A stretch of 64,000 nt of DNA from an uncultured Verrucomicrobiae bacterium (GCA_963702845.1 OY969763.1:4256001-4320000), one strand, 5' to 3'; counted from the stretch's first letter, positions 22,278-51,051 are shown. A program made the numbers and translations. Notes: generated by a model not told the origin, from the letters alone.

Positions 22278-22287
22278 ACTCTCCTTT

Positions 22288-22614: not shown

Positions 22615-22623
22615 CGTCTCCTT

Positions 22624-23208: not shown

Positions 23209-23209
23209 A

Positions 23210-24681: not shown

Positions 24682-24751
24682 AAAATTTTCCTTTCTATTG
24701 GGGGAGCGCCACCCCGACACCATTTGGTGTGCGGGGTCGGCGCCCGGTTTG

Positions 24752-25762: not shown

Positions 25763-25837
25763 AAACGTTTTTTCTCCGGTTTATCCTTCATTACGAAGGG
25801 GGTTAAGATCCGTGCGCGAAGCGCCTTGGCCGGCACG

Positions 25838-26650
25838 CTAGTGCCCCGACGCCTGTAAGCGCGCGGCGAGTTGCGGATCAGTTTTTTGCAGTCTCATTTG
25901 CTCCGTCAAATTCCAGCTTTCCTTGCGGAAGGGATTTTTGACGGACCGACCTTGTCGTGAGCCAGCGCCTCCACCGGAAGCGTCGCCAGCGGCACCGCCA
26001 CCAGCATTGGATTCGAACAAGTGAGGAGCGTCGGAAACTTGCGAATCCACCCACTCCTCTAAAGTCATCGGCGTCACGCCATCCTTGCCGTAACGCACAG
26101 TCTGGCCATCAGCCTCGAATGCGCGCGGCGCACCGTTCACCAACTTGAAAACATTTCGCGCGCGTGCGGTGATGTCCGTAAGCGCAGTTGCACGCAGCCC
26201 TCTCTTTGTCGCAGCGCCAACCACACCTTGATCAATCTGAATCGCAGTGAGCCGAGCATTAAGGGAATCACGCTCCGAAGTGAGAGTGGTGAGTTGCTTG
26301 TCCCAATCCGCTTTCAAACCCTTCACACGATTTTCAACAACCTTCTCCAACTCACCCGCCTTGAGTTGCTGCGCTTCTTCGAGTTGGCGTTTTTCGTCAG
26401 CGAGCTTCCGGAACTCATCCGGATCAATCCCGTCGAATCGGGTCTTTTGCTCTTCGATCTGTTTCAGCAACGCCAAATTGCTCTGGCGAAACTCATCCAG
26501 CCGGGCTTTGAGGGCATCGTGGCCGTGTGCTAACACTTTGTCGGCATCGCCGTCGGCTTCCAAAACCCAAGCGCCGTCGCGCTCGACATAATGCGCAGCC
26601 AACTCAGCCGGAATTTCGCTCTTCGAATTAAACTTAAACTTCAGTGCCAT
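25838..26650 (-). CDS. Capsid scaffolding protein
   Basis: Coiled coil, APHLFESNAGGGA, KNPFRKESWNLTEQ; between portal and capsid. Confidence 0.8.
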   Translation of the reverse strand: MALKFKFNSKSEIPAELAAHYVERDGAWVLEADGDADKVLAHGHDALKARLDEFRQSNLALLKQIEEQKTRFDGIDPDEFRKLADEKRQLEEAQQLKAGELEKVVENRVKGLKADWDKQLTTLTSERDSLNARLTAIQIDQGVVGAATKRGLRATALTDITARARNVFKLVNGAPRAFEADGQTVRYGKDGVTPMTLEEWVDSQVSDAPHLFESNAGGGAAGDASGGGAGSRQGRSVKNPFRKESWNLTEQMRLQKTDPQLAARLQASGH

Positions 26651-26662
26651 AATCGTTCGTAG

Positions 26663-28360
26663 TTATGCCGCAATCGGTTGGTTCGTCGGCACAGCAGCAG
26701 CGGCAGATGCCGGAGCCGACGTTTGTCTTGGTTTTTGCCCCGGGTCGCTGGGACCGGAATCGGAAGTGCGACTCGCACCGCTGGGACCGGATTGGGAACC
26801 GCGACTCGAGGTGATGAGCGCCACCTCGTCTTCATTCGAGCGCCCATCCGGCAAAATTTCTCCACGCCGGAAAAGCTCCAGCATCGTGTCCTGGCTGATT
26901 GCACCCGCTTGCCATGCAGCGACGATCTCGCGCAGCTCATTACTATCCATCCCGGCCGTCGTGAAATCCGTGTTCAGCGACATCACAACAACGTTGTCAG
27001 TCAGCGCTTCGGGAGTTTCTTCGGTGGAATTCCACCAGTAAACCCAGCGCAAAACCTGCGTCAGCGACTCGCTCAAACTCGTCGCCACATTCGCCAGCAC
27101 GCTGTTCTCACCGCTCTGCCGCAGCTCGATCGCTTGCGCCGTTTCACCCACGCGCTTCTGCGACTCCAACAATCGCGAACCAAGCACAGCCAAAAGCTTT
27201 TCATCACGATCCATCGCGCGCTCGAAAGTGGTGAGCCCTTGGCCCGTAAATTCCAGGAAGCCAGCAGTTGCCCCCGGCGCTTCCGAATGCCAGGCAGTGC
27301 TTGAACCGATGCGCAGCGGCTCACTTTTATCGAAACCACTCACCCACGCCGTCGGCAATGCGGTAAAATGCATGCCGTGCTTGTAATCGGCATTGAGCCG
27401 GTAGTGATCCAGATTCACTGCGATCAAATCAGTCAGCGGCAACTTATCGACAGCCGGCAAAGAATTGCGCGGTCCATGAAAAACAAACGGGATCAGCGGC
27501 AGCGGTTTACCAAGGCGTAGAGGCGTGCGCGTTTCAACCAAGGTCCATTCAGCCTTGCTGCCTTTTTTCGACGCAGAGCCTTGGCCGCGTGCTAACGCCT
27601 GCCAGATTTCAACTTGATACGCGAACGAAGCCTTCCGTGAATTCGGGTCGCGGGTCGTGGAACGACCAAGCTCTTGTGTTGTTCCAATCTCAGGACCGGA
27701 ATCGGAGGTGCGACTCGCACTCGCACTGCGGACCAACTTGAGCACACGAATCTGCTCCACAACCTCAGGAGCAAATTCATCTACGCCAACGCCGCCGGCT
27801 GCAATGTGGCCGTGTGCTAACACTTCCGACAACACGATCAACGTTGGCAAGTTGCGACCATTTACACGTTCCACTCGCCAATTGATGATTTGCTCAGCCT
27901 GATACAGCGAGACATAGGCGCGGTTTTCAAAATCCCCTTCCCAATCAACCAACGTCCCGGCTCGGCCTACGCCGATAACCTCAGTGACCAAATCCTTTGC
28001 GTAGCCAGTCAGCGACGTGCCCAGCATATCGCAGTCGTTAACGAACTGCCCGAGCGCGGAAGCGAGCGCAGATGGAGCCCCTCCGGATGGTGCCCGTCCG
28101 GAAGGACCTTCAGGAATTTTGACAAAAGGCGCGCGACGAAATATTAACCCGCTGTAGCCATCGAGCGTTCGGCCCGTCGCATTGAAGAACGAAGCGCGAT
28201 CGCGATAAGCTTTGAATTCGTCATCCGATTGCGAATCCAACTTTGGCAAATAACGCTCGCCCGCAGCTTTGACGGCATCCTCACCAGCCAAAATATCGCG
28301 CGCACGAATCCATGCGGATACGCTTGCGTCATATTCGATGTGTGTAGAGTTAACCGGCAC
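26663..28360 (-). CDS. Portal protein (DUF4055-type)
   Basis: YLPKL..Y..RASFFNATGRT, EQIINWR, IPFVF, NLDHYRLNADY, ETAQA; probable GTG start at 28360. Confidence 0.85.
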   Translation of the reverse strand: MPVNSTHIEYDASVSAWIRARDILAGEDAVKAAGERYLPKLDSQSDDEFKAYRDRASFFNATGRTLDGYSGLIFRRAPFVKIPEGPSGRAPSGGAPSALASALGQFVNDCDMLGTSLTGYAKDLVTEVIGVGRAGTLVDWEGDFENRAYVSLYQAEQIINWRVERVNGRNLPTLIVLSEVLAHGHIAAGGVGVDEFAPEVVEQIRVLKLVRSASASRTSDSGPEIGTTQELGRSTTRDPNSRKASFAYQVEIWQALARGQGSASKKGSKAEWTLVETRTPLRLGKPLPLIPFVFHGPRNSLPAVDKLPLTDLIAVNLDHYRLNADYKHGMHFTALPTAWVSGFDKSEPLRIGSSTAWHSEAPGATAGFLEFTGQGLTTFERAMDRDEKLLAVLGSRLLESQKRVGETAQAIELRQSGENSVLANVATSLSESLTQVLRWVYWWNSTEETPEALTDNVVVMSLNTDFTTAGMDSNELREIVAAWQAGAISQDTMLELFRRGEILPDGRSNEDEVALITSSRGSQSGPSGASRTSDSGPSDPGQKPRQTSAPASAAAAVPTNQPIAA

Positions 28361-28657
28361 GTGCGCATTTGTAGCACACGTTTTTCCGAAAGCTTTTGAA
28401 GGCAACTAGACGACACGAACCAACGCGAATCTCCGTACACTCTTCGCGAACCAACGCGAAAATTTTTGGCGAAAAAAAGTTTTGACAGGGTTTCAGACAA
28501 CCCCAAAGCGGGTTGAAGCATCCAGCCCAGGTGTTGAGGAGGGATGCGGGGCTCTACCCTGGGTAACCCGCCTCAACCGCAGATTCACTTTGCCGAAGGC
28601 GCGACGAAGGAGTTAAAAACCCATCTTCAGCAAGAGCCGCAACCTGCGCTAAAACGC

Positions 28658-28709
28658 TTGTTCGCGGATTAAAAATATGCGCACTGTTGGCGCAGATTAA
28701 TTGTTCGGT
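28658..28709 (+). repeat. attI-like repeat type A, copy 1 of 11
   Basis: Consensus TTGTTCGCGGATTAAAAAYATGCGAACWGTTGTCGCAKATTAATT-GTTRRRY; copies start at 28658, 29175, 30412, 30807, 32551, 38672 (partial), 53704, 54134, 62192, 62758 (partial), 63095. Confidence 0.8.
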
Positions 28710-28721
28710 GAAGGAGATCCT

Positions 28722-29051
28722 ATGAAGAAAATCTTGCTGTCTGTTTCGTTGATCGCCATGTGCATCTTGATGATCGCGGCCGAGTCTACGCAATCCACAG
28801 TCGACGAGAAGACCGCTCGGAAGCTGGCGGCTGAGCAGTATAATCAATTGTTCCTCGGTGCGTATTTGCTTCTAGGCTCGAACTATATTCAGTTTCCAAA
28901 GCTCGACCCAACATCCTTCGACACGGTTAAGGTCAAAGATGGATGCTGGCAGGTGGTTATGGATCCACCACAAGGCTGGTATGTCGATTCGAAGGTGTCG
29001 CTGGATGGTAAGTGGGTACAAATCACCCGTGCTGGTTTCTCTCCGGATTGA
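28722..29051 (+). CDS. Cassette-like secreted hypothetical protein
   Basis: AAGGAG RBS right after type A repeat; signal peptide. Confidence 0.65.
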   Translation: MKKILLSVSLIAMCILMIAAESTQSTVDEKTARKLAAEQYNQLFLGAYLLLGSNYIQFPKLDPTSFDTVKVKDGCWQVVMDPPQGWYVDSKVSLDGKWVQITRAGFSPD

Positions 29052-29236
29052 GACGACAAATTTCACGCGGGGACTGCGGCGGCAACGAAGGCGTTCTCGG
29101 TGGATGCGGGTTTCGGCACCACCACCGTCTTCATGACCTCCATCGCGCCAAACCTGCGCGCCACCTTTAAAACATTGTTCGCGGATTAAAAATATGCGAA
29201 CTGTTGGCGGATGTTAACTGGTAGACCTGCGCTAGC

Positions 29237-29782
29237 ATGAAGAAAGCGATTCCATTCGTTGCCTTGATCGTTGCTGGCATCTGCATGGTGGTAGCCGTTT
29301 ACTTTTGCCACTTCTATTACACCCGCGAATTGGAGAGCCGCCTCAATTACTTCGACCACCGGCTTGCCACTCTCGAAGCTCACAAGTCTCGACAGCTTAC
29401 CCCAGTCCGCGTTTGGGCAGTGATTTCCACCAGTGACAAGCCAGCCGACGAGGGTCTTCGGTTTTATCTTTCTTCGGAGAAGCACCGGGACGATTTCTTC
29501 GAGGCCATTGGCGCGAAAGGCGGCCCTCTGGTTCGACCAGAGCTTCGCTTGCCCGCTGGCTCGATCACCAACTGTACGTATGATATTCAGGTTGGGAGCC
29601 AGTTTGGTATTGTGGCTGATGCCTGGCTGTCGCACGCCGCGCCATATCAGGATTTGGCCGCATTCGACGAGTTTCGCGTCTACTCTCCGAATAGGACGAA
29701 CATCGTGAGACTAATTGCACGACCCAAACCCGGTGCTTCCGTCCAGATGCGGTTTAATATTGTGCTGTTGTGTGAGCAGTAA
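29237..29782 (+). CDS. Cassette-like membrane-anchored hypothetical protein
   Basis: Starts 11 bp after type A repeat; N-terminal TM. Confidence 0.65.
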   Translation: MKKAIPFVALIVAGICMVVAVYFCHFYYTRELESRLNYFDHRLATLEAHKSRQLTPVRVWAVISTSDKPADEGLRFYLSSEKHRDDFFEAIGAKGGPLVRPELRLPAGSITNCTYDIQVGSQFGIVADAWLSHAAPYQDLAAFDEFRVYSPNRTNIVRLIARPKPGASVQMRFNIVLLCEQ

Positions 29783-29794
29783 TTTGACGACGGA

Positions 29795-29953
29795 TCAGCT
29801 CGTCCATTTCCAATCGCGGATCTCCGGCATGTCGTCGCCGTGCTCGCGGATGTAATGTTTGTGTTCCATGAGTTTGTTTTGGATGGCCTGTTTGGCGTAG
29901 GCGGCCCGCGCGCCCAGTTGCGGCAGGCGGTCGATCACGTCGGCGAAGAGATG
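29795..29953 (-). pseudogene. xfp: 3'-terminal fragment of phosphoketolase (xfp)
   Basis: HLFADVIDRLPQLGARAAYAKQAIQNKLMEHKHYIREHGDDMPEIRDWKW matches the phosphoketolase C-terminus. Confidence 0.8.
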
Positions 29954-30007
29954 CGTTTTGTTGCGCTTGATTCGCAGCGGCAGCAGAACAATAGTCTGCT
30001 CAACCAA

Positions 30008-30070
30008 TATGAACCAACCGTTCGTATATCAAAATGACCGCGATACCCCGTCGCATAATCATTGTTAGGC
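30008..30070 (+). repeat. attI-like repeat type B, copy 1 of 5
   Basis: TATGAACCAACCGTTCGTATATCAAAATNACCGCGAYACCCCGTCGCATAATCATT-GTTRRR; copies start at 30008, 31302, 50664, 54816, 55589, with GTT always 56 nt downstream. Confidence 0.8.
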
Positions 30071-30082
30071 GGATTTCAAGTT

Positions 30083-30382
30083 ATGCGCTTTATCGGATAC
30101 GTTTTGCTGTTAGTTGGTTTTTTGTGGCTGGTTGTTTGGTGCGCTGGCTCGGTTGTGCCGTTGATTCGGAATATCGGGATTGGACATTTCAAGCAGTATT
30201 CTCCCACAAAGACATATTCTGGCAGTGAAGTTTGCGATGGGATTCGTAGTGCGCTCATTGAGTATCAGGACAATGCGCACGGAGTTGTTTTGCCAGCCAC
30301 GCTAATGCTGGGTGGCGGAGTTTTGCTGGATTTAGCTGGCCGCCGGAAAATCAAACAAGGAGATGAGAAGCGATCCGCCTAA
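30083..30382 (+). CDS. Integron cassette membrane protein
   Basis: Bounded by GTTAGGC (30064) and GCCTAAC (30377), which contains the stop codon. Confidence 0.7.
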   Translation: MRFIGYVLLLVGFLWLVVWCAGSVVPLIRNIGIGHFKQYSPTKTYSGSEVCDGIRSALIEYQDNAHGVVLPATLMLGGGVLLDLAGRRKIKQGDEKRSA

Positions 30383-30477
30383 CCATGCGCGGCGCGCCAC
30401 CTTTAAAACCCTTGTTCGCGTCTTAAAAATATGCGAACTGTGGTCGTGTATTAATTGTAGGTTGTTGCCGCCCTTTT

Positions 30478-30762
30478 ATGCCAAAGCCAGATCACATTTT
30501 GAGTTTCGCGACGGACACGGACGGCGATCAGTTGTTCATTCACGCCGACGCTAAGGGCTTGGACCATTTGATTCGTTCGCTTACGCATATCCGGAAGAAG
30601 CTCGACGAAAATTATTGTGACCACGACCACCTAATGACTGACGCTTGGGGAGGCAGGGAGCTTTCAGAGCGGAGCATGCCAGACGGCATTCATTTGATTC
30701 ATCACGTCAAGATTTATGGCTGGACTGCAGAGTGGGTCCAGAAACATGGGTTATCGTCCTAA
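30478..30762 (+). CDS. Imm32-like immunity protein (cassette)
   Basis: IHADAKGL..L, HDHLMTDAWGGRELSE; stop lies in TCCTAAC. Confidence 0.7.
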   Translation: MPKPDHILSFATDTDGDQLFIHADAKGLDHLIRSLTHIRKKLDENYCDHDHLMTDAWGGRELSERSMPDGIHLIHHVKIYGWTAEWVQKHGLSS

Positions 30763-30866
30763 CGGATGACGCCCGCGCTGATGGCGTAACACGTCGTTTT
30801 AAACCCTTGTTCGCGGATTAAAAATATGCGAACTGTTGGCGCAGATATAATTATCAAAACAGCAAA

Positions 30867-31181
30867 ATGAAGGTAGCTGAATACATATCCAGGACTGCCG
30901 GTTGGCTTCTGATTGCTGCAGTGCTTGCGATCGGCTTTGGCTTTATGTTTGGCGTGCCACAGTCGGGACTATATCGACGTGTCTTTGATTTCCTTTTTGT
31001 CGACTTGTCCTATGAACTCTTAAAGACTGGCGTCCCACAGTCAATTGTCTCAACTGCAGGACACATTCCGCACTTTACCGTTGTAGGGGTGCTTTTATTC
31101 TTTGTGCTGCCGGCAATTTGTTGTTTCGTTGTAGCCGGGCGACTCCACAGGCAACTTGGGCTAAACGATAAACGCCCGTAA
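30867..31181 (+). CDS. Cassette-like membrane protein
   Basis: Follows type A repeat; two TM segments. Confidence 0.55.
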   Translation: MKVAEYISRTAGWLLIAAVLAIGFGFMFGVPQSGLYRRVFDFLFVDLSYELLKTGVPQSIVSTAGHIPHFTVVGVLLFFVLPAICCFVVAGRLHRQLGLNDKRP

Positions 31182-31378
31182 GAGCGGCGCTACGCGCTCC
31201 ATTTCCAATTGTGGATCTCCGGCATGTCGTCGCCGTGCTCGCGAGCGCGTTTTGTTGCGCTTGATTCGCAGCGGCCGCAGAACAATAGTCTCCTCAACCA
31301 ATATGAACCAACCGTTCGTATATCAAAATCACCGCGACACCCCGTCGCCTAATCATGGTTAGGCCGCTGCGACATATC

Positions 31379-31954
31379 ATGCGAACATTCCGAAATTTGT
31401 TTATCCTCATGGGCCTTCTCTCATTTCTCTTCAGCGGTTGCATCAAGCGGCCAGAGGCACAGAGCCCAGCGAGTTCCAACAGATCGTCCGGGGAGGTGTC
31501 GTTCGAGAGGACAACGGGACTGCGTGACAAGGTCATTGCCAACTCAAAAGACCAAGCCAGCCTCCGCGAACTCGTGAGTCTGCTGGATGACAGCTCCGCC
31601 CTTAACAGGGCCAATGCGGCGGGATGCCTGCGTCAGCTTGGGCATAATAGAGTGACGCGAGATCAAGTTGCGCCGATCGCCGTTCCGGCGTTAGCTAGTC
31701 GAATCGACTCCGTAGGTCGCGAAGCACCGATTGCTCTGGGCGCTTATGGATCGCTTGCGGCGCCCGCGGTGCCTCAGTTGATACGAGCAGTCGAGCAGTA
31801 TCCAACGCAAGATACAGGGTGGTTTGCCGCAGAAGCGTTGGGTGACATCGGCCCCGCTGCGAAGGACGCAATTCCAGTACTCACGGCCGTTAAAGACAAG
31901 AAGTGGATCGGCGAATACGCGGCGAAGGCGTTGCGGAAAATCAACGGCATATAA
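31379..31954 (+). CDS. HEAT-repeat lipoprotein (cassette)
   Basis: LFSGC lipobox; AAEALGDIGPAAKDAIPVL; follows type B repeat. Confidence 0.7.
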   Translation: MRTFRNLFILMGLLSFLFSGCIKRPEAQSPASSNRSSGEVSFERTTGLRDKVIANSKDQASLRELVSLLDDSSALNRANAAGCLRQLGHNRVTRDQVAPIAVPALASRIDSVGREAPIALGAYGSLAAPAVPQLIRAVEQYPTQDTGWFAAEALGDIGPAAKDAIPVLTAVKDKKWIGEYAAKALRKINGI

Positions 31955-32103
31955 CGTAACCAGAGTCCTACAGCGGACGGCGGGTTGACCTGAGTTTGCA
32001 ATCCACGAAACGCTCCTACGCCGCAGCCGTCCGCTCTCGGCGATTGCGACGATAGGCGGGTTGGTGATATACAACCCGCTGTTCGTTGATTAATTGTTAG
32101 CTG

Positions 32104-32415
32104 ATGGAAGCGCTAAATAGATTGCAGCAATGGTATCGCTCCCAATGCGACGGCGTCTGGGAGCATTCATGGAGCGTTAGGATCGCCACCCTCGACAACC
32201 CTGGTTGGAGCGTCGATGTTAATCTTTGCGATACACCACTTGAGGGCAAGTCATTTAAGGAACACAGCTATGGGGTTGGCAGCGCCGCGACGACTAGCGG
32301 AGATGAGTGGATCGTATGCAAAGTCGAACAGAACGTATTCAAGGGTCGCGGCGGCCCTTTCAAGTTGCAGGAGTTGATTGAGGTGTTTCTTGATTGGGCG
32401 GAAAAGAACGGCTAA
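32104..32415 (+). CDS. Imm53-like immunity protein (cassette)
   Basis: LQQWYRSQCDGVWEH...IATLDNPGW; bounded by GTTAGCT (32096) and GGCTAAC (32410). Confidence 0.85.
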   Translation: MEALNRLQQWYRSQCDGVWEHSWSVRIATLDNPGWSVDVNLCDTPLEGKSFKEHSYGVGSAATTSGDEWIVCKVEQNVFKGRGGPFKLQELIEVFLDWAEKNG

Positions 32416-32611
32416 CCACCTATTAAGCCCGCGCGGTCGTTAGGCGCATTCCCGCTTTGCGCCTTGAAGTTTAACCCATCCGGTTTCACCTTCGCGCCAT
32501 CGGCGGCACCGACCCACGGTTTGCCTTCAATCATTGCCCCGTTAAATCCCTTGTTCGCGTCTTAAAACTATGCGAACAGTTGTCGCATATTAATCGTTAG
32601 TCGCGCACCAC

Positions 32612-32917
32612 ATGAGAGCCAAAATGCCAGAGTCTCCGTTAGAGTTTTGGATATGGTTCGCCGTTATTGCCATTGTTTGTGTCGGAGCCTGTCGGTTTTC
32701 TCGTCGTTGCTATTGGCTCGCTGCCCCTTTCGCAAGTTTTCTGCTTTATCAGGGGTGGAGCCTTCTTTATGCAAACGTTAGCTTCAGCGGCGAATTACTG
32801 TCGCAACTAGGATTTAGCTACTGGCTTCAGTTCGCCCTATCGTATGCGCTCCCATTGATTAGCATTGCAGTTTACGCCATCTACGATTTCAGGTATCGAA
32901 AGAAACATGCGGACTAA
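32612..32917 (+). CDS. Integron cassette membrane protein
   Basis: GTTAGTC (32596) matched by GACTAAC (32912). Confidence 0.7.
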   Translation: MRAKMPESPLEFWIWFAVIAIVCVGACRFSRRCYWLAAPFASFLLYQGWSLLYANVSFSGELLSQLGFSYWLQFALSYALPLISIAVYAIYDFRYRKKHAD

Positions 32918-33004
32918 CCAAAGCGTTCCAGCGGCCGGCGGGACGACGCTGTATTTTCAATCCTTGAGTCAGTGGCCCGCCACCGCTGAGTTTGTGTGTT
33001 AGGC
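32912..33004 (+). other. attC site (complete)
   Basis: GACTAAC...CAGCGGCCGGCGGG...CCCGCCACCGCTGAG...GTTAGGC, imperfect palindrome of 93 bp. Confidence 0.8.
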
Positions 33005-33014
33005 GACTCAATTT

Positions 33015-33305
33015 ATGTCTCGAAGCGTTCACACCTCACGTCCGAAGTTCCGGAAAGCAGCGAAATATGATTATTCGTCCGAGGGCGAGCGTATTCGCGT
33101 GCTCGGGAAGATCGCCGATGAGATTATGCTTAAACGAACGATGAAGGCAAACGCTCGAATCGAGAAACAGGGCCAGAAGGCTGGCCTCAAGCGATCGCGC
33201 ATTTATGTGGAGCACCGCGCCGCCGCGTCGAAAAAGAGTCCGCCAACACCGGAAGCACAGGAGTTGGTGAAGAAGAATTACCTCGGGAGTAAGAGTTATG
33301 GTTGA
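33015..33305 (+). CDS. Basic hypothetical protein (cassette)
   Basis: Starts 11 bp after attC core; degenerate attC at 33321-33366. Confidence 0.55.
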   Translation: MSRSVHTSRPKFRKAAKYDYSSEGERIRVLGKIADEIMLKRTMKANARIEKQGQKAGLKRSRIYVEHRAAASKKSPPTPEAQELVKKNYLGSKSYG

Positions 33306-33376
33306 GTGGAACGAGCGTAGGCCAAACCAGGCTGGTTCTGAGTGCCACTGACAAGCATTGTTAGGGCATCATTCAT

Positions 33377-33661
33377 ATGGCCAGAACCTTGAAGGTCGAA
33401 CTCGCGGTGCCGAATGCGCTCTCCGTTCAAGACTTGGTTCCCCAATTCCAGAATTTCGGTGAGGATGTTTATCGCGCTTTGCGAAATCAGTGTGAAATCT
33501 CTATTGAAGAGATTGACCATTTCGCTGGCGCGTTCCATTTGCGGGGCATTGACAAGCGTGATGTTCGGACCATCGCTGCAGACGTGCGCAAGATCCTTGA
33601 GAAGCATCATGGGCTCACAGATGTTAAGATTTACGAAGTTCTAGATGACCCAGATGCCTAA
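33377..33661 (+). CDS. Hypothetical protein (cassette)
   Basis: GTTAGGG at 33360; stop in GCCTAAC (33656); attC extends to about 33746. Confidence 0.65.
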   Translation: MARTLKVELAVPNALSVQDLVPQFQNFGEDVYRALRNQCEISIEEIDHFAGAFHLRGIDKRDVRTIAADVRKILEKHHGLTDVKIYEVLDDPDA

Positions 33662-37628: not shown

Positions 37629-38105
37629 TCCCACCTGGCTCGCGTCCGCCCAGGGCGCGAGCCATTCACCTATGAAAAATCCATTACTCGACAACTCTCC
37701 GCGCTGGCGGCAGTGCCTCTTTCAGCTCACCCGCATTGTTACCATCGAGACCCGACGCCGTTGCATGTGCATTCCCACGCGGGAAGAAGCCAAGGACGAA
37801 GCAATCGCCTCCGTCGCCAACATGGCGCGGCGCTCGTTGCCGTCAGAATCTCGAAAAACGGCACCGGCAAGACGGCGACCTACACGTGCGCATACACCTT
37901 GCGCGAGACCCGCTCCGAGGAATTATTCTGACCTACAAACGCGGCTGGCCCTACAGGCCTGCCACTTTTTTGGAGACTCACGTCGCCTCCAAACCTCCAC
38001 GCCAGAGATTTGCAACCTCTGGACTCCGCTCTCGCGGCCTTCCCCTTTGTGAGAACTTCCGTTGCGCTAAATCCTACAACATGCAACGCTCTGTCGTTGC
38101 ACCTT

Positions 38106-38489
38106 ATGACGCACATACAATTCTTGCGCGAATACTTCCAAGCCCGTACAGATCAAATCAAGGCAGAGATCGAACGCCGCTCGCCGTTCCGGCAGAAATA
38201 TTTTGCAGCAGACTGCCTATACGATAGTCGTCGGGGCATTGTTGAGAGTAGCCAAGCAGAGAATATTCTCGACGTTTCCGAGGTAGACGGTGAGGTGCTG
38301 GTGAATACGACAGGCACTTCCGCAAATAAAATGGCCTTCCCACTACGCTACCATTTACGTCGTAACGGTGAGAGTTGGCTGATTCACCAAATAGAGTTTC
38401 GTTGCTCCGCTTGCAACGGCACGGGCAAGTCGCCGTATGCGGAGTCCGGTACCGCCTGCCAATTTTGCGATGGCAAAGGCTGGAGGTAG
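38106..38489 (+). CDS. Hypothetical protein with C-terminal DnaJ-like CxxCxGxG zinc finger
   Basis: CSACNGTG...CQFCDGKG. Confidence 0.65.
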   Translation: MTHIQFLREYFQARTDQIKAEIERRSPFRQKYFAADCLYDSRRGIVESSQAENILDVSEVDGEVLVNTTGTSANKMAFPLRYHLRRNGESWLIHQIEFRCSACNGTGKSPYAESGTACQFCDGKGWR

Positions 38490-38502
38490 CGCAGCTGCTT
38501 AG

Positions 38503-38595
38503 TCACAAACCCCTCAACTTCCGTTGAACCACCACACGCGACTTCGTCGCGACCAAATACCGCGACGCATCCGCTACATCATCTTCGCCGCCTCC
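38503..38595 (-). pseudogene. Duplicated, diverged 3' end of terminase large subunit
   Basis: Encodes GGGEDDVADASRYLVATKSRVVVQRKLRGL*; last 19 aa identical to the intact terminase. Confidence 0.85.
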
Positions 38596-38747
38596 AGGGG
38601 CCAGTGCGGCTCGCACCCTCCACGCCAGAGATTTGCAACCTCTGGACTCCGCTCCTTTGCCACTAGACAGAATGCGAACCGTTGTCGCATATTAACCGTT
38701 AGTTGCTGATTGTGACGTTAGGGCGGCTGCGCTGACCAAGGAAAACC

Positions 38748-39479
38748 ATGAGAACAGCCAATTTCAAATACGCCGTTGTATTTTTCCTATTGCTCGGCCT
38801 GCTGGTCTTCATTGCTTGTCAACACTTCCGGGCAGCTGATTTGGCCGATGAAAATGCCCGGCTTAAGAATGAAATGGCGCAGCACAAAGAGGCGGAAGAA
38901 ACCAACAACATATCTGAATCGCAACTTGCCCAAGCACAATCCGTGAATCGTGCTCAGCTAAAGGAATTACTCCGCCTGCGCACGCAGGTGACCTCGCTAA
39001 GAGCACAGTTGCCGCAACCGACGAGGCAGCCATTGAAGGCGCCGCCGTCGTCCCCGGTTCAAAAGGCGGACCCAGATGTGTCCAGTGAGGAACGTTACGC
39101 GGAGGACATCATCCCTCGGGCCACCTTCGCGCACCAGTGGATGGCCGCACTCAATGAATATGCAACCAAGAATCAGGGACGTTTTCCCACGAATTTCGAT
39201 CAAGCGGCACCATTTCTGTCGGCTGACGCCCAGGGGCAGACTAATGTCGCCACCAACGAATTCGAAATCGTTTTCCAAGGCTCCCAGAACGCTCTTACCA
39301 ACCAGGGTGACGATGAGGTGATCGTCCTGCGAGAGCGCCAGCTACGCCATAGATACGACGGCAAATGGGGGAGAGTTTACGGTCTTGCCGACGGCTCATC
39401 CCTTCAACGTTTCTTCGAAACCCAAGACGCCCTAACGCAGTGGGAGCAGGATCATCTACGAAACACCGCCTCGCCGTAG
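38748..39479 (+). CDS. Membrane-anchored coiled-coil hypothetical protein
   Basis: AAGGA RBS; ELLRLRTQVTSLR; follows partial type A repeat. Confidence 0.65.
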   Translation: MRTANFKYAVVFFLLLGLLVFIACQHFRAADLADENARLKNEMAQHKEAEETNNISESQLAQAQSVNRAQLKELLRLRTQVTSLRAQLPQPTRQPLKAPPSSPVQKADPDVSSEERYAEDIIPRATFAHQWMAALNEYATKNQGRFPTNFDQAAPFLSADAQGQTNVATNEFEIVFQGSQNALTNQGDDEVIVLRERQLRHRYDGKWGRVYGLADGSSLQRFFETQDALTQWEQDHLRNTASP

Positions 39480-39519
39480 CGCTGCGACATGCACAACCGG
39501 AAGGGACAAGCCCTTTTGT

Positions 39520-40914
39520 TTACAACCCGCGCAGCTTCCGTTGAACCACAACGCGCGACTTCGTCGCAACCAGATACCGCAACGCGTCGGCGGTGTCATC
39601 GCCTCCGACCCCTTCATCCGCATCCACCTTCATCACATCCTCGGGCCGATTCGGATCACGTTGCAGCGCCGGCAGACAATCAATCAGCCGCGCGCAACGC
39701 CGATGAATAAACAGCGTCGGTTTGATGCAGGCCTCCACATCACCAAACCTGTGCAAAATCTCCGCCCATCCATTCACGCGATCGGTGTTCGCACACCGCA
39801 GCGTGATTCCTTCGCGCGCATACTGCGCCGCGACCGTGGTGCCGTCGCTCTGTCGACCGAACACATCCGCGCCGGCCACGAACCGTTTCAAATCCGAAAT
39901 CTCCAATTTGCGATTTCCGATCGTCCGCCGATTCACCATCGCCTTGATCGCAAGCGCATGCCGTTGCGGCAACCAAAGCCGATCCGCATGCTCATCCACA
40001 ACGAACATATTCCCGTCGCCATCCGTGCAGCCGAGATAAACGACCGTGTAATGGTTAAAACCATAATCCAGCGCGCAGAACCACTCTCGCGCCCGCTTAT
40101 CATCGAAATCATCGATGACATGCACGTCGCGCCGGAACGTCGTGAAGAATTGCCCCGCCGCAACATCCCAATCACCATCCAGCCAAAGCCGCCGCTGCCA
40201 TGCTGGCAGCCCTTCCAAAACCCGCACATACTCCGGATTGTTGTAACGGTTATCAGTCACGCGCGCCGCGATAAAGCGCGTGTCCGTTTCCTTTCCGTCG
40301 CGGAAAGGAACAATGTATTTCGACTTATACCACTGATGCCCGATGCCGCCCGGATTCGTCGTCGAATAAATCCTCGGTCTCCAATTCGGCTTGCTCGTGC
40401 GGCAACATGTCGAAATGTCCTGATACTTGCGCGACGACAACGTCGTCGCTTCTTCAATCCCAATCACGTCGTATTCAAGCCCGAGATACGCGTCGATGTC
40501 CTTCTCGTTCTGGAAATGCCCCGCGATGATGCGCGACCCGTTCGCAAACGTCAGGATCCCGCGATAGGCCGAGAACTCATGCTTGAGTTTCCCAAACAAA
40601 CGCCGACGCAAATCCTCAAAGTGTTCCGTGTTCGCCTTGCCAACTTTGCGCAACAGCAAACACTTCAACCCAGGCACGCGCTGACAATCATCAGCGCCCA
40701 TTTGCGCGAGCAGCCAATGCGACTTACCACCACCGCGAGCGCCGCCGTAGCCGATCGCCGTTGGCCCATCGCGCCGATCACAAAGCCGCGCGGCCGCTGA
40801 CGCGGCCAGCTGCCGCTCCTGCAGGTAAATTTCTCCACGGAGGAAATTTTCCATCTGCTCGCGCGGACATCCAGCCTTGCGCCCATCGGTCAAATACGCC
40901 TTAACCGAATTCAC
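39520..40914 (-). CDS. terL: Terminase large subunit
   Basis: YGGARGGGKS Walker A, IGIEEA Walker B, TTNPGGIGH, ALDYGF, DDTADALRY nuclease motifs. Confidence 0.93.
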   Translation of the reverse strand: MNSVKAYLTDGRKAGCPREQMENFLRGEIYLQERQLAASAAARLCDRRDGPTAIGYGGARGGGKSHWLLAQMGADDCQRVPGLKCLLLRKVGKANTEHFEDLRRRLFGKLKHEFSAYRGILTFANGSRIIAGHFQNEKDIDAYLGLEYDVIGIEEATTLSSRKYQDISTCCRTSKPNWRPRIYSTTNPGGIGHQWYKSKYIVPFRDGKETDTRFIAARVTDNRYNNPEYVRVLEGLPAWQRRLWLDGDWDVAAGQFFTTFRRDVHVIDDFDDKRAREWFCALDYGFNHYTVVYLGCTDGDGNMFVVDEHADRLWLPQRHALAIKAMVNRRTIGNRKLEISDLKRFVAGADVFGRQSDGTTVAAQYAREGITLRCANTDRVNGWAEILHRFGDVEACIKPTLFIHRRCARLIDCLPALQRDPNRPEDVMKVDADEGVGGDDTADALRYLVATKSRVVVQRKLRGL

Positions 40915-41483
40915 AGCTTCCCTCCCGGCAACGCTTTCGGTTCCGCAACAATCTCCGCTTCGATCGGTTTGCCATAGACATCGTCAAGCGCCTGGACGAA
41001 TTCGACACGCAGCGTCGCGGCAACTTCCCCGGTCACTTCCGTTTTGTCCGTCGCCATACCCGACGACAACCGCCCGAGCCTGCTCGCCAGATCCAGCAAC
41101 CGCGCAATCCCTTCCAACGATCCGCACCGTTGTGGCGCCTTCTTCCACCGCGCAATCGCCTCCCGCGCCAGCTCGATCAACTCCCCGCGCGTCCGCCACT
41201 CCTCCTCGCGATGCTCCTCTTGCCGGCTGACCCATTGCGCCGCCTTGCCGCGCGTCAAAGCTTCAGTCGCTTCCCGCTCAACAATCGCAAGATGCGCCGC
41301 ATGCGCCTGCACCCGCGCCGGCCAATCAAACTTCGCCGACCACCTTCCCAACATCGTCACACTCTTGTGTAACTTCTGTGCAACCGTAGCCAGCGACCGC
41401 TCAGCACCGAGGTTCAGATACAAACTGAACGCCGCAAACGCTTTGTCCGATTCACGTGGTTGTTGTTCAAAAGGGAGAGGCAT
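40911..41483 (-). CDS. Terminase small subunit-like HTH protein
   Basis: FEQQPRESDKAFAAF..Y...RSLA...RWSAKFDW..R; overlaps terL start. Confidence 0.7.
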   Translation of the reverse strand: MPLPFEQQPRESDKAFAAFSLYLNLGAERSLATVAQKLHKSVTMLGRWSAKFDWPARVQAHAAHLAIVEREATEALTRGKAAQWVSRQEEHREEEWRTRGELIELAREAIARWKKAPQRCGSLEGIARLLDLASRLGRLSSGMATDKTEVTGEVAATLRVEFVQALDDVYGKPIEAEIVAEPKALPGGKL

Positions 41484-41673
41484 TGTTTTTCTTTCAGTAA
41501 TCGAAGGTGGCCGTGCGCAAGCACCTTTCTCGAATTTCGGCGATGGTTTCGTCCACTGACAGCCGCTGCCCTGTCTTCCACCAGTGATAGCGTTCTGGCG
41601 AATCAGTCGGGATCACCAGCGTCCCATCAGCCTTCAAATACGGCAGGTTGTCGGTGGCCGTGTGCAAACACTC

Positions 41674-41885
41674 TCGGACGCTTCGGACGGGGGGACGAAA
41701 CTCCTTTAGCGTGTACGTATTAATATTCTCTTTTTTTGTGCCCCGTACAATGAGTTTTGAATACCCGTCCGAAGCGTCCGAGAATCTTCAACAGTTTCGT
41801 CGTTGGACTTTGAAACAGGCGTCCGAGGCGTCCGAACTTTCTCAAAGCTCATTTCGACTTGCGAAGAGGCGTCCGAAGCGTCCGA
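41674..41885. repeat. Iteron-like repeats, candidate replication origin
   Basis: CGTCCGARGCGTCCGA at 41766, 41820, 41870 and inverted at 41674, around an AT-rich core (41718-41738). Confidence 0.65.
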
Positions 41886-42194
41886 ACCAAATAACGGCCC
41901 TAATCGGCTGAAGATCGTGGTTGCCACCCGCTGTTGGTTCGTCGGACTCGCTACTTTGACAGCAATCTCGCGCCGAGGCACCGGTCCTGACCGCTCCCCA
42001 GCCAGCGCAAACACCCTTTTGCGATGCTCCTTGTCCTTCGGATGCACACAGCAACCGAACCGCCCGTCTGGATACACGCGAAGATGCACACCCGTTTTGT
42101 CGTTGCCACTTTCGGCGCACGCCGGGCAGCGCGCGCGCTTCATCCCGTTGCTTAGATCGACAACCTTTTCCAACTTCGACAAATCAAGGCTCAT
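41706..42194 (-). CDS. Zn-binding hypothetical protein downstream of primase
   Basis: ARCPACAESGNDKTGVHL..GCC; overlaps primase stop. Confidence 0.6.
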   Translation of the reverse strand: MSLDLSKLEKVVDLSNGMKRARCPACAESGNDKTGVHLRVYPDGRFGCCVHPKDKEHRKRVFALAGERSGPVPRREIAVKVASPTNQQRVATTIFSRLGPLFGSDASDASSQVEMSFEKVRTPRTPVSKSNDETVEDSRTLRTGIQNSLYGAQKKRILIRTR

Positions 42195-44152
42195 GCGCGA
42201 ACCTCGCCTTCATCGATGCGAAACTTCACCCCGTTGAAACCGCGTTGATTCTTATCCTCGCGTTTGATGTCATGCCGTTTGGTCACGCCAAACATTTCCA
42301 GCATCAACCCCTCCAGCTTGCCTTGCACCTCAGTGATCGGCAGCGGTTGCCACCGACGCTCTGGACAGAAGGCGGCATACGCCTCAACAAGCTCGCTCGT
42401 TGTCACATCGCCAAAACTGTCCGCAATAACGCGCTCCTCCAGGAAGCACCGCAAGCTATCGCTCTCAGCCAGCAACGAGTCCACAATCCCGCGCTGTCGC
42501 GCTGTTAAAACCAAATCGCCACCTTCGTCCGGGATCTCCGTCAGAACTTTGCGCGCACCCTCCAGCGCCCAATTCAAAATGCCGCTGCCTTCCGTGCGAA
42601 TGAGATAGCCGCCAAAGTCAGGAATCTTCTTCGCAGGAGGCGGCGATTCGTAGCGCACGATGTTGAGCCGCCGGCGCCATGCGCCAACGTCGCCCTGCAA
42701 TCGAACACGCAAACGCGCGTTCGACGTGATCAACACGTTGAACGTCCCTTGCACCTGGAATGAACCCGTGCCGCCTTTTTGTTCGGCATCGAACCAGTCA
42801 CCACCAACCAACCCTTTCAAAACCGCCGCACCTTTGGTGCTCAGAAAATCTGCTTCCACGTCGACGCCGACGAGCAGCGTCTTTTTCAAGTAGCGAAACA
42901 ACTCAAACCGCTCCGCCAACTGCTTCGTGCGCAGTTGAGTGACGTTGGTCATGCCGATAAGACCCTGCATGACATTGGCGAACTGCGTTTTGCCGCGACC
43001 GGCTTCACCGTCCAAAATCAAAAACCGCTGCGCTCGGTTCTGACCGAGCAACATCATGCCGGCAAACCGTTGCAGAAGACTGACGTCCTCGGGATCCACC
43101 GCCGGCATGACCAGCTCATTCAGGAATCGCTCGCACTTTGCGTTCTCATCGAACGCAATCGGCGAGCGGTTGCGCGATCGGAACTCAGGCGAGAACGGCT
43201 GCAGCTCTGCTTCGCTGCCGTTGAAGACAACGACGCCGTTGGCCAGGTGAATCGTTTTGCGCTTCTCCTTAAACGCGTCGCGCTTTTCGGTGAGTCCGCG
43301 CAAATGCGCGATCACCGAATTGAGCGTCTTTGCCGTGCGCCGCTTCTCGAGGTCGAACACCTTCGCTTGCCGCGACGCTTCAAGCATGCGGCTCGAAATC
43401 TTATTGCGGATCGCATCGCTGGACTGAACTTCGTAAAGCCCGGTGCTCGCTTGATACGCGTAAAACTCCAGCTCCTCGGGCTCGAAAAGAATCTCGTTCT
43501 CCGCGGCGTGCAAGCCCGCCCAATACTCTTCGTTGATGCCGGTGACCGCTCCTTTGTCAGTCGTGTAGAAGGGCTCACCGTGCCGCTCGCGCAACTTTTC
43601 ATCGCTCGCGGTGAGCCATGGCAATTCCCATTCCTTCGGCCAAACGATCTCCGCAAAGGGCAAAGACACTGGCGCGACATCGACGACAAGCTGGTAATCC
43701 ATGCCTGCCGGATGCCGGCCGTAAATTGTTGAAAGCCGTCCATCCGCCCGCCATTCGAAATGCTTGTGCTCCGGATTGCAGCTCTTCGGAAAATCAGCTT
43801 GAATGCGCACCCACAACATCGCGCCGCGACTGCCGCGCGAGCGCGTCGTCGCTTCCAGTTTCGGATTGAGCGCGAGAAACGTCGCAAGGTCTTCATCCGA
43901 ATCAAAATCAATCGCGCACAACCCGCCCGAAATCTTGCCGAGGTAAATGGCAATGTTCGTTTCTCGTGCGGCAAAGATTGCACGATACGCTTCGGTTTTC
44001 GTGCCCTCAAACGGCCGCGCCACATACGTGACCAGCGGTCTCTTTGTCCCGAATTCACACGGAACAAAGAAAACATCCTCCCCGAAAAGCTCAACGAACC
44101 TTTGCAGGCCATTACTTCGGGAAACGGGTTGCAACGACTCAGGAGCGCTCAT
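42191..44152 (-). CDS. Bifunctional primase-polymerase / D5-type SF3 helicase (P4-family primase)
   Basis: CAIDFD prim-pol motif, GRHPAG; GEAGRGKT Walker A; ITSN motif C; AWRRRL. Confidence 0.88.
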   Translation of the reverse strand: MSAPESLQPVSRSNGLQRFVELFGEDVFFVPCEFGTKRPLVTYVARPFEGTKTEAYRAIFAARETNIAIYLGKISGGLCAIDFDSDEDLATFLALNPKLEATTRSRGSRGAMLWVRIQADFPKSCNPEHKHFEWRADGRLSTIYGRHPAGMDYQLVVDVAPVSLPFAEIVWPKEWELPWLTASDEKLRERHGEPFYTTDKGAVTGINEEYWAGLHAAENEILFEPEELEFYAYQASTGLYEVQSSDAIRNKISSRMLEASRQAKVFDLEKRRTAKTLNSVIAHLRGLTEKRDAFKEKRKTIHLANGVVVFNGSEAELQPFSPEFRSRNRSPIAFDENAKCERFLNELVMPAVDPEDVSLLQRFAGMMLLGQNRAQRFLILDGEAGRGKTQFANVMQGLIGMTNVTQLRTKQLAERFELFRYLKKTLLVGVDVEADFLSTKGAAVLKGLVGGDWFDAEQKGGTGSFQVQGTFNVLITSNARLRVRLQGDVGAWRRRLNIVRYESPPPAKKIPDFGGYLIRTEGSGILNWALEGARKVLTEIPDEGGDLVLTARQRGIVDSLLAESDSLRCFLEERVIADSFGDVTTSELVEAYAAFCPERRWQPLPITEVQGKLEGLMLEMFGVTKRHDIKREDKNQRGFNGVKFRIDEGEVRA

Positions 44153-44163
44153 ACGCTTCCTCC

Positions 44164-44568
44164 ATGGCGACACCCAACCACAAACATGGCAACAGCTACC
44201 CGTTCGAGCAGATTCGCGAGGCATACGGAGCCGACGCGCCGAATGCGGCGAAATCGCCTTATCTTCTGTTCAATGGCGACGAGATCGTAGCGCTGTGCCT
44301 GCAACACAGGTTCAATCCGGAACCTGGCGAAATTTGGGTTGGTGACGATGCGCCCCTCGCAGAATCGGGCAAGCAACTCGCAGCGCTTAAAGACAAGAAA
44401 ACGCTTCCGCTTTATTTCCGAGCGCGCGGCCGCAAGTTTTTTGAGTTTAAGGGCCACCATTTCATCACAGGCGACACCGCAGACCCGCAGGAACTCGCCA
44501 AGCGCAAAGGCCCGGTTCCTCTCTCGCGAATCGTCTTTATCAGGCCGGTTCCTCACAAAGCTGTTTAG
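44164..44568 (+). CDS. Hypothetical protein, antisense to operon (moron-like)
   Basis: 134-aa ORF filling the gap between minus-strand genes. Confidence 0.55.
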   Translation: MATPNHKHGNSYPFEQIREAYGADAPNAAKSPYLLFNGDEIVALCLQHRFNPEPGEIWVGDDAPLAESGKQLAALKDKKTLPLYFRARGRKFFEFKGHHFITGDTADPQELAKRKGPVPLSRIVFIRPVPHKAV

Positions 44569-44618
44569 TGCCGCCGGCGGCGCAGCAAGTCCGGAAGTTG
44601 TTTCGTGCGCTTCCATTC

Positions 44619-45035
44619 TCACTCCGCTTCGCTCCGGTCAGAGTCAAACTCCGCGCTCAACTGCGGCCAGTGGTAGCTAAACCCCGGCTCCTCATCCCAT
44701 TGGCCATGCGCATTTCTTGCAAATCTCTCTGGCCTCAGCACCCCCCTCATCATCACAACGAAAGCTTTGATTTCCTCTCGGACGTGTTCCGCAGTCGTCA
44801 ATTCCGCCGCCTCGACCAGATTTATGAAAAGGTTGTTAATATCGATTAGAAACACTGGCCGAGGATGCTCCTCCGCGCGGAGCCAGACATCATCTTCGAT
44901 AAAAGGAACGTCTCGCGGCGACACCCAAAACTCGCCAGCGGGACCAACGCCAGCCCAAACGAGCTTTGCCTGACGGTTCTCATCAAGCTGTAGTGACCGA
45001 AACCATTTTATGTCTTTTCTGTTCGCAGTATTCAT
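44619..45035 (-). CDS. Phage hypothetical protein
   Basis: AAGGAG RBS; start overlaps helicase stop. Confidence 0.55.
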   Translation of the reverse strand: MNTANRKDIKWFRSLQLDENRQAKLVWAGVGPAGEFWVSPRDVPFIEDDVWLRAEEHPRPVFLIDINNLFINLVEAAELTTAEHVREEIKAFVVMMRGVLRPERFARNAHGQWDEEPGFSYHWPQLSAEFDSDRSEAE

Positions 45036-46327
45036 AAACTCTCCTTGTAGAATTGAATCGCTTCCGGCGACACGTGGACACCCTTGAACCAATCCTTGAA
45101 ATGCAAGCCGGCCAGTGATCGCACCCGCGACACCGCCACGTAAGCCTGCCCAGGATCACGCGCCGCGCGGATGTCCAGATAAGCGGCGTCCAACGTGAGC
45201 CCTTGTGATTTGTGAATTGTCATCGCCCAGGCGAGACGTAGCGGAAATTGCGTGAACGTTCCTGACTCGGGATCATCTTGCGCATAGCGCCAAGTGAACG
45301 GTTCGACATTCACTTCGTCGCCATTCGGCGCGCGCACCACAACAAGGCCGGGATCAATCTTCTCAACGGTACCAACCTGCCCATTTACAAACAGCGGCGT
45401 CATTCGCCCGGGCTCATTCCGGTTGATGGTAAACATCACCATTGCGCCGAGCTTCAACCGCAGCGTTTCCGGTGTGAGCAAATTCTTTTTCAAGAATTCG
45501 CGTTGCTGCTCAGGACCGCTTTGTTCCGCAACCAAGACCGTTTCAACGCCGGGCAATTCGGACAGCTGAAACTCGTTCCACTTGTCCACTTGCACGTTGT
45601 GCGTGTAGAGCCGCGTCAAATTCGCGGGCGGAAAATTGCGAATGCGCGATTGCAGAATCCGCGCCGTCTCTACCCAAACATTTCCGACGCGGAAATTTCC
45701 CAACGCGCGAACAAAGGACGGCTCATCTTGCCGCCGCACCTTTTCGAGAATGATCGTTTTGAACTCAGCGCGTTCCCACGTTTGCGATTGAAACGCCCAA
45801 TCGTAAGGGAGCTCTTCGCCATGTGGCCCACACGCTAGTGTGCGCACGGGTGGCAGTTGGAGAAAGTCACCAATCACGATGACCTGCACGCCGCCGAACG
45901 GCTCATCGCTTCCGCGCAATCGCCGAAAGAGATATTCGATAAAATCCAATTGCCGACCCGGCAGCATCGAGATTTCGTCAATGACGAGGATCTCGCATCG
46001 CTTCACCCGATTAAACCCGGCGAGGATCGACTTGCGCGGATCGCGACGAAGCACGCCGTAGTAATCTTCGTTCGATTGCCCAAGTTGCGGCCCGAGCATC
46101 ATCCCGCAAAACCGGTGAATCGTCATCCCTGACACGTTCAGCGCCGCGACACCCGTTGGCGCGGTGACATCGACTTTGCGCGCGCACTCTCCAATGAAAG
46201 TGCGCAGCAACGTACTTTTGCCCGTGCCGGCCATGCCGGTAAGGAACACGTTGCGCCCGCCGTGCGCCGCACCGAGGAAACGATTTTCCTCGGTAACGAC
46301 CAAATCAATTTCTTCGCTGAACGTCAT
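45032..46327 (-). CDS. PIF1/RecD-like SF1 helicase
   Basis: GMAGTGKS, APTGVAA, TIHRF, IDEISM, GDFLQLPPV, QFPLRLAWAMTIHKSQG, QAYVAVSR. Confidence 0.93.
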   Translation of the reverse strand: MTFSEEIDLVVTEENRFLGAAHGGRNVFLTGMAGTGKSTLLRTFIGECARKVDVTAPTGVAALNVSGMTIHRFCGMMLGPQLGQSNEDYYGVLRRDPRKSILAGFNRVKRCEILVIDEISMLPGRQLDFIEYLFRRLRGSDEPFGGVQVIVIGDFLQLPPVRTLACGPHGEELPYDWAFQSQTWERAEFKTIILEKVRRQDEPSFVRALGNFRVGNVWVETARILQSRIRNFPPANLTRLYTHNVQVDKWNEFQLSELPGVETVLVAEQSGPEQQREFLKKNLLTPETLRLKLGAMVMFTINRNEPGRMTPLFVNGQVGTVEKIDPGLVVVRAPNGDEVNVEPFTWRYAQDDPESGTFTQFPLRLAWAMTIHKSQGLTLDAAYLDIRAARDPGQAYVAVSRVRSLAGLHFKDWFKGVHVSPEAIQFYKESL

Positions 46328-46343
46328 GCGTCTCCTTTGCGAT

Positions 46344-47195: not shown

Positions 47196-47262
47196 AAAAA
47201 TTCCTTTCCAAGAACGCGGGACCAGCCGTTCGACTGGCCCCGCATGACCTTGGCGTCATGGG

Positions 47263-48604: not shown

Positions 48605-48631
48605 TCGCGTCCTTTGCGTCCTTCGCGAGAC

Positions 48632-51036: not shown

Positions 51037-51051
51037 CGATGGCGCTCCAGC

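Follow-up and report, generated by a model that had tools for sequence, protein, structure and literature searches.

The ssiA and ssiB single-strand initiation (ssi) sites of the IncQ plasmid RSF1010, which are used by the primase RepB′ and the RepA helicase, are essential 40-nt sites, one on each strand at the origin. RepA belongs to the AAA_25 family and is encoded beside RepB′. Each site presents six conserved bases 5′ of a DNA hairpin with a G-N(-N)-A loop cap and is strand-specific (accessible parts of PMC8567376 and PMC13037366). According to the accessible part of the former report, the six bases of ssiA are the binding site of RepB′, which initiates on the 3′ side of the hairpin and copies into it (PMC8567376). 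Here we describe a hairpin motif of about 20 nt that recurs in a window of 64,000 nt (the whole stretch analysed) from an uncultured Verrucomicrobiae bacterium (GCA_963702845.1 OY969763.1:4256001-4320000). It lies in E4, a tailless prophage-like element (21561..49917, ends approximate) whose head genes, terminase and replication module are encoded on the minus strand and which is one of five paralogous elements in this genome, together 131 kb. The motif shares the ssi layout, with six bases 5′ of a hairpin, a comparable loop cap and strand specificity, but unlike ssi sites it is multi-copy, dispensable, inserted in genes and also present in host DNA. An element carries from 0 to 12 copies, scattered and with few exceptions on a single strand.

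Other known repeats resemble the motif in part. Mycobacteriophage stoperators are short one-orientation repeats found throughout the phage, also within genes, as is the motif, but as repressor sites they have a fixed, asymmetric sequence, show no covarying stems and are not inserted. Rickettsia palindromic elements (RPEs) are far longer than the motif, and we know of no phage enrichment or polarity for them. As far as the accessible text goes, RPEs are similar in being palindromic in-frame insertions that add peptides to working proteins (PMC3733652). The vRNAP promoters of phage N4 and the G4-type primase origins are template-strand single-stranded DNA (ssDNA) mini-hairpins read by a polymerase (PMC13037366, accessible part), whereas the motif is scattered, inserted, found inside late genes and carried by an element in which no such RNA polymerase was found among the 63 window proteins scanned. 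Group 3 GTAG/GTGG repetitive extragenic palindromes (REPs), associated with RAYT/TnpA-REP transposases, share with the motif a short perfect covarying stem and a 4-nt loop, preceded by 2 nt and, in most motif copies, a GTGG sequence like their tag, together with genome-specific variants, some tandem or paired copies and in-frame copies in genes. In the accessible parts of the corresponding reports, Marinomonas REPs have a 5-bp stem two bases from the tag and a 4-base loop (PMC8266576), REP classes covary their stems (PMC3686654) and O. terrae carries a GTGG family with many intragenic copies (PMC3733652). The motif is REP-like in its spread and ssi-like in its layout, and lacks defining features of both. 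In the literature covered, which leaves most subscription papers outside, neither this motif nor a priming site or ssi site that copies itself is described.

A pattern search of both strands detected eight perfect TGGCC-stem-GCWA-stem hairpins in the window, all on the plus strand, whereas 0.01 matches were expected under a fourth-order Markov model of the window (mean of 300 simulations); the positions, stems and loops given in the original prediction were all verified. The hairpin at 25826..25845, with the 5-bp stem GGCAC and the leader TTGGCC, supplies through its loop the stop codon of the scaffold gene (25838..26650, minus strand), and a second small hairpin module lies before it. Four copies are located in frame within genes, as originally proposed: one in the scaffold gene (26519..26536), two in the portal gene (26663..28405, minus strand), encoding the ALARGQ (27581..27598, in a variable linker) and VLAHGH (27806..27823, in a hypervariable loop) peptides, and one with the 5-bp stem CACAC (45823..45842) in a gene encoding a Pif1/Dda-like helicase (45032..46327, minus strand). 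The three remaining copies lie in a conserved non-coding block (36680..36697), just upstream of the start of the small terminase gene (41507..41524) and next to iteron-like repeats at 41749-41887 (41654..41671). A ninth plus-strand copy with one leader change (36758..36775; GTGGCA GCGT GCAA ACGC) is present in the non-coding block. No other TGGCC-stem-GCWA-stem copy was found on either strand of the window, in agreement with the original remark that none was seen by eye outside 25.8-45.8 kb. The motif is not confined to this element, however: the genome contains 30 perfect copies where less than one is expected. Hairpins with other loops (GGCTC, ATGCT) follow TGGCC at 22292 and 44856 and were left out of the count.

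The fixed TGGCC leader and GCWA loop first noted fit the eight copies, but the consensus is broader and reads (T)(G)GTGGCC-stem (4 or 5 bp)-GC[ATC]A-stem. The earlier suggestion that structure matters was borne out: 25 of the 73 GTGGCC-N4-GCHA-N4 matches in the genome are perfectly paired, compared with 0.29 expected, and with each of five control leaders only 0-1 of 51-82 matches were so. The 93 antisense copies with at most one leader change in phage-family loci contain 29 different stems. At the scaffold site, a paired double change distinguishes GTGT/ACAC from GTGC/GCAC, and some stems at the capsid stop codon are partly made of the stop codon itself (CTGAC, TTAAC, CTAAC, GAGGC). At one primase stop codon, four lineages have four different stems, and in one locus (L550) layered partial copies of differing stems show repeated writing at one place. 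The loops are GCTA, GCAA or GCCA, the third base being T, A or C in all 79 exact-leader copies and GCGA never occurring. Such loops suit ssDNA of the GNNA type, formed by the plus strand as written, better than RNA of the GNRA type; mini-hairpins of DNA found at priming sites provide a comparison (PMC13037366, accessible part). Decayed stems contain G-T and C-A mismatches in about equal numbers (8 and 10), so that mismatches mark neither strand, and folding energies, calculated without mini-hairpin terms, did not separate the two strands. A search of 20 motif loci and of E4 against Rfam returned no match apart from tRNAs. The recurrence of the motif at matching sites in diverged paralogues, in independent assemblies and in viral contigs rules out an artefact.

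Comparison of filled and empty sites shows that the motif is a structure-keeping, order-specific micro-insertion and not a fixed part of the phage. Starting from 284 distinct perfect sites and accepting an empty homologue when both flanks were at least 80% identical, we obtained 28 filled/empty pairs, at least three of which are not independent. The net gain is 12-20 nt across these pairs and 15-17 nt in 22 of them: about 20 nt, (TG)GTGGCC-stem-GCHA-stem, replace about 2-7 target bases without any target duplication. The junction on the hairpin side is exact, the target resuming at the hairpin base, and no bases are shared there in 23 of the 28 pairs, so that an early impression of microhomology at this junction was not upheld. 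On the leader side the junction is ragged, and foreign bases (TG, TTG) often make up the final 2-5 positions ahead of GTGGCC. The base following the hairpin is C or T in 253 of the 284 sites (flank background 0.52), CTC being the commonest triplet, and in empty sites the base before the junction is mostly a purine.

The copies in the window illustrate this behaviour. Both hairpin modules at the end of the scaffold gene are absent from the sister element E2, as are the copies upstream of the small terminase gene and beside the iteron-like repeats, although E2 keeps these repeats. The in-frame scaffold copy lies within a 30-nt insertion of 10 residues that four paralogues of the genome possess and all 52 other homologues lack. 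In the helicase, the copy corresponds to a 6-residue insertion common to E2 and absent from six other homologues. In the portal gene, E2 has an equal-length degenerate look-alike of the ALARGQ copy, and the VLAHGH copy is common to E2 only. Relative to element E3, the two copies of the non-coding block represent net gains of 16 nt (36680..36697) and 17 nt (36758..36775). The motif is shown to survive where it is tolerated, i.e., in gaps after stop codons, protein loops, non-coding blocks, tRNA arrays and dead gene fragments.

The predicted strand polarity proved strict within the phage family. In 56 loci covering 918 kb (five from the source genome, a few first found through the motif, and some sites shared between paralogues), 79 exact-leader hairpins are antisense to the phage genes and 4 are sense. 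A search of both strands of the genome, allowing one mismatch, gave 32 antisense and no sense copies in the five elements, and 24 of the 30 perfect copies fall in these elements, a 180-fold enrichment. Outside of them the polarity is lost, with 12 copies, 7 lagging and 5 leading, and no replichore rule. Both strands are likewise mixed on single contigs in another genome (G065), and no gene-orientation rule was found for host copies in that genome or in the pooled set with a rough gene caller.

The motif is specific to one order of Verrucomicrobia, and the names of related records point to the Limisphaerales/Pedosphaera group. The pattern GTGGCCGYSYGCWARSRC occurs in 193 of the 401 genomes of this order (530 matches, one unpublished genome, G334, being counted), whereas the reversed control never exceeded three matches per genome. 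Only six of 300 genomes from the rest of the phylum have a match, which is the control level, and in a 17-nt scan of all genome contigs the matches outside Verrucomicrobia were mostly due to chance. The exact GTGT-type pattern had no match in viral contigs. Most carriers have 1-4 copies, the maximum being 27, and many copies lie inside genes. Variants are genome-specific, with mostly GTCC/GCAA in one genome and GCTA loops in another. Host copies sit in tRNA arrays, inside tRNA genes, in gaps filled with short tandem repeats, in tandem runs and in dead duplicate fragments of thrS, carB and other genes. Clustering of 434 nearby open reading frames (ORFs) revealed no recurrent neighbour, only target genes and phage genes. 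A screen of sequencing runs gave no RNA run and two DNA runs with 5-6% of the words, whose contigs showed only relatives.

Several other repeats occupy the same landing places. In relatives, the gaps after the capsid and scaffold stop codons and the portal loop hold many oriented short tandem repeats and small GNA-capped hairpins, some of them translated in frame; in G065, the motif lies on the pyrimidine-rich strand of such short repeats in 24 of 27 sites. Large tRNA arrays were observed in seven loci (L099, L103, L070, L506, L510, L512 and L513), two of which adjoin TROVE/Ro60 genes; they include a tRNA with a UUA anticodon, and several of their tRNAs are interrupted by the motif. A GTAG-containing palindromic host repeat family is present in the source genome (around 3772600 of G000 and at about 15 further places), and three motif copies landed in it.

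Our preferred reading, to which we give a probability of roughly 0.4, is that the motif is a miniature ssi site copied by template switching of a candidate hairpin-binding primase. The more detailed proposal that this 20-nt ssDNA hairpin is bound by a phage primase-polymerase and written elsewhere by template switching, with no transposase, integrase or reverse transcriptase, is slightly more tentative. In this proposal, the binding site of a RepB′-like primase-polymerase encoded by an element would comprise the folded hairpin and the six bases of the leader. A nascent strand with the orientation of the phage genes would stall, or would have just started, at a pyrimidine-rich site; the enzyme would extend it on the bound motif copy, from the hairpin base through the hairpin into the leader, and the extended strand would re-anneal to the target a few bases further on. 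Copies that no longer fold would be neither bound nor copied, which would keep the stems paired while their sequence drifts, and every event would yield a new site of the same polarity, allowing the site to spread itself. Read on the presumed nascent strand, the observed inserts begin at the hairpin base and end raggedly in the leader. The polarity and enrichment in the elements, the pyrimidine next to the hairpin, the DNA-like loops and the layered copies of L550 also favour this reading.

A candidate enzyme is encoded by the sister element E1. This protein of 328 amino acids (G000:C1:131119-132096) belongs to no Pfam or PHROG family, but the Atlas places it near RepB primases. A first model of poor quality (pLDDT 58.6) gave no fold match, whereas the best match of a model with a pLDDT of 94.5 is RepB′ on ssiA DNA (Z 11.2, rmsd 3.0, 143 residues), tied within 1 with the PrimPol domain of cyanophage S-2L (Z 10.4). 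Foldseek ranked the same family first, with an E-value of 0.01. The gene adjoins one for an AAA_25 helicase, as in RSF1010, and this pairing of a RepB′-like primase with a RepA-like helicase is found in E1 and 12 relatives. The window's element encodes a prim-pol/D5-type helicase instead (42191..44224, minus strand); the E1-type enzyme would act on E4 in trans. The motif is present in 8 of the 13 elements with an E1-type primase and in 1 of 10 elements outside the source genome with other or unresolved modules (p 0.017), a small comparison in which one borderline copy was not counted and kin are not independent. The priming function proposed in the original prediction is retained as the best guess, but not as a built-in signal of E4 or of its prim-pol.

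Several observations weigh against a self-copying priming site. Five of the 13 elements with an E1-type primase have no clear copy, which indicates that the motif is neither essential nor the origin, and among the positive loci, L514 was originally retrieved because of its motif. At the genome level, the motif is present in 10 of 15 genomes with the close primase clade and in 181 of 384 others (p 0.19), and the clade is found in none of the eight richest genomes; a profile of 101 sequences detected no member of the primase family in three motif-rich genomes. Foldseek gave no match to the E1 model at E <0.001, and the likeness of its predicted fold to RepB′ does not show function. In the accessible part of the report, RepB′ primers measure 10-12 nt, begin five bases away from the hairpin and probably extend no further than its tip (PMC8567376); the enzyme would therefore not copy the entire site. 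Stems built from target bases, as at the capsid site, cannot come from a fixed donor and require later selection or fold-back repair. Host copies, finally, are on both strands; primase copying and end-joining sealing in host DNA could act together. The presence of the phage family also predicts the motif (36 of 48 genomes versus 155 of 351), and kinship inflates all genome-level co-occurrence tests, whether for the primase, LigD or the phage family.

Two rival explanations involve other enzymes. The motif could be a functionless repair scar, left when the host end-joining system (LigD polymerase, ligase and Ku) captures or copies, at DNA breaks, a discrete hairpin oligonucleotide of some 20 nt that resists nucleases; phage-like elements would collect copies because they are often broken or single-stranded. 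We regard this as unlikely, though the strongest of the alternatives. End-joining typically leaves small target deletions and a ragged end, as observed at the motif junctions, but we know of no strand preference of this process, and the ratio in the elements is 79:4. A LigD polymerase is present in 7 of the 8 richest genomes tested and in 81 of 376 others, and at least one copy occurs in 59 of 88 LigD-positive genomes compared with 125 of 296 LigD-negative ones, although these p values too are inflated by kin and two genomes with motif-rich elements (G178 and G320) have no LigD match. The LigD genes belong to split LigD modules of the ordinary kind, and in two cases Ku is encoded next to them; apart from one poor match, the motif is missing beside these genes, and nothing was found from which the oligonucleotide could derive. 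The limitation to one order and the landing places common to other oriented micro-repeats also suit a scar, which leaves unexplained the perfect stems partly made of target bases. Uptake of foreign DNA by bacterial non-homologous end-joining is the subject of PMC6379672, according to its accessible part. Somewhat less probable still is a minimal REP, in which a RAYT-type HUH transposase supplied in trans would mobilise the GTGG-tagged hairpin as one unit. It would account for the group 3 anatomy, the genome-specific variants and the tandem copies and close pairs. However, a flank search for Y1/RAYT genes covering six genomes in all revealed no flanking motif, let alone inverted copies, at any of 37 Y1-transposase loci (five genomes); two of these have a single perfect copy, about 1 kb or more away. 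No paired GTAG form exists (0 in the source genome and 0 of 17 matches in five genomes), and the first G of the tag, present in 78 of 93 copies, varies in the other 15; TG-C are the letters that never change. Target bases are lost at the junctions, and the base before them is mostly a purine, which does not fit TnpA-REP cutting at C|T, C|A or C|C. Rather than being high-copy, extragenic and arranged in inverted doublets like REPs, the copies are mostly low-copy singlets concentrated and polarised in phage-like elements, many of them in genes, and no transposase family recurs beside them. Y2 transposases (IS91/Helitron-type) were not found in the source genome (90% complete) and gave two matches in five genomes.

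The remaining alternatives are less probable. An improbable one is the explanation originally favoured, a cis signal of E4 that arose and was kept by selection as a priming site for its prim-pol, a packaging signal or a template-strand promoter. The strict polarity and the perfect stems with double changes at the scaffold, capsid and primase stop-codon sites agree with it. A fixed phage signal is nevertheless ruled out by the filled/empty pairs: the copies are recent insertions missing from close relatives and absent from most homologues, and the motif also occurs on both strands of host DNA and in dead host gene fragments. The proposed link between the two origin-side copies and the prim-pol found no support: E2, with an 87% identical prim-pol, lacks both. 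In other genomes, five elements with such a module are free of the motif, and one viral contig has a single copy; in an unbiased viral set, found through capsid homology, 3 of 55 loci have a copy. The packaging and N4-type promoter readings found no support, since the motif is absent from many elements and the scan of 63 window proteins revealed no RNA polymerase. Less probable than any of these is retro-insertion, in which a reverse transcriptase would switch from the 3′ terminus of DNA to that of a small hairpin RNA. Target-primed reverse transcription leaves an exact 3′ junction, a ragged 5′ end and small deletions, and the motif junctions resemble this pattern. On the other hand, no reverse transcriptase (PF00078) was found in the source genome, the loops are not GNRA, the 29 stems would need many templates and Rfam offers no candidate RNA.

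Like E4, its four paralogues, at 126-149 kb, 1706-1742 kb, 2234-2253 kb and 4820-4844 kb of G000, are head-only elements encoding a portal, scaffold, capsid and adaptor, with swappable replication modules and no tail or adjacent integrase seen; in E4, no tail or integrase gene was found among the 63 window proteins scanned. Capsid homologues of this family are present in 66 of the 401 genomes of the order. The non-coding block (36200..37700, ends approximate) lies between the terminase and portal genes, is conserved in paralogues and relatives, has 17 genome matches and no Rfam match, and is a frequent landing place of the motif; it is possibly an RNA gene or an origin. Iteron-like repeats and a 40-nt inverted repeat at 41667-41887 are conserved in E2 and are likely to be the origin of the prim-pol module. 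In E1-type modules (L531, L553, L549 and L529), the AAA_25 gene is directly followed, as judged by eye, by short direct repeats and then a long conserved inverted repeat, a stronger candidate than the motif for the true origin.

Other features of the window were noted. Cassette-like small plus-strand ORFs (Imm32, Imm53, HEAT) occupy 28600-36200 and 50660-55700. Each has a leader repeat of about 60 nt in front, with its end near GTT, and RYYYAAC or attC-like palindromes behind. The leader repeat has 29 genome matches, and the cassettes resemble integron cassettes with no integrase beside them. They carry reversed 3′ ends of other genes (29803-30068, 31190-31362, 54704-54876, 55477-55649; 38505-38595), which include phosphoketolase-like ends (read by eye; 39 genome matches) and duplicated terminase ends scattered over the genome. 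Elongation factor G is split into three ORFs at 14495-16698, where frameshifts may be long-read errors, and an IS110-family transposase at 51515-52666 has several genome copies.

How short hairpin repeats such as REPs enter new places in vivo is described as open in the accessible parts of PMC8266576 and PMC3686654. The many matched filled/empty sites, the clear junction signature and the strict strand rule of the motif make the candidate enzymes directly testable. If LigD or a RAYT writes the motif, it would form a natural record of what such enzymes insert; if a primase does so, it would reveal a new route of DNA mobility and a new primase activity. Should the self-copying site prove true, the motif would be among the smallest selfish DNA units known, adding short peptides to phage proteins, and primases would gain a programmed short-insertion activity. 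The motif also adds, to phage and host proteins of an order that is abundant in soil and freshwater, short in-frame insertions that have so far gone uncounted.

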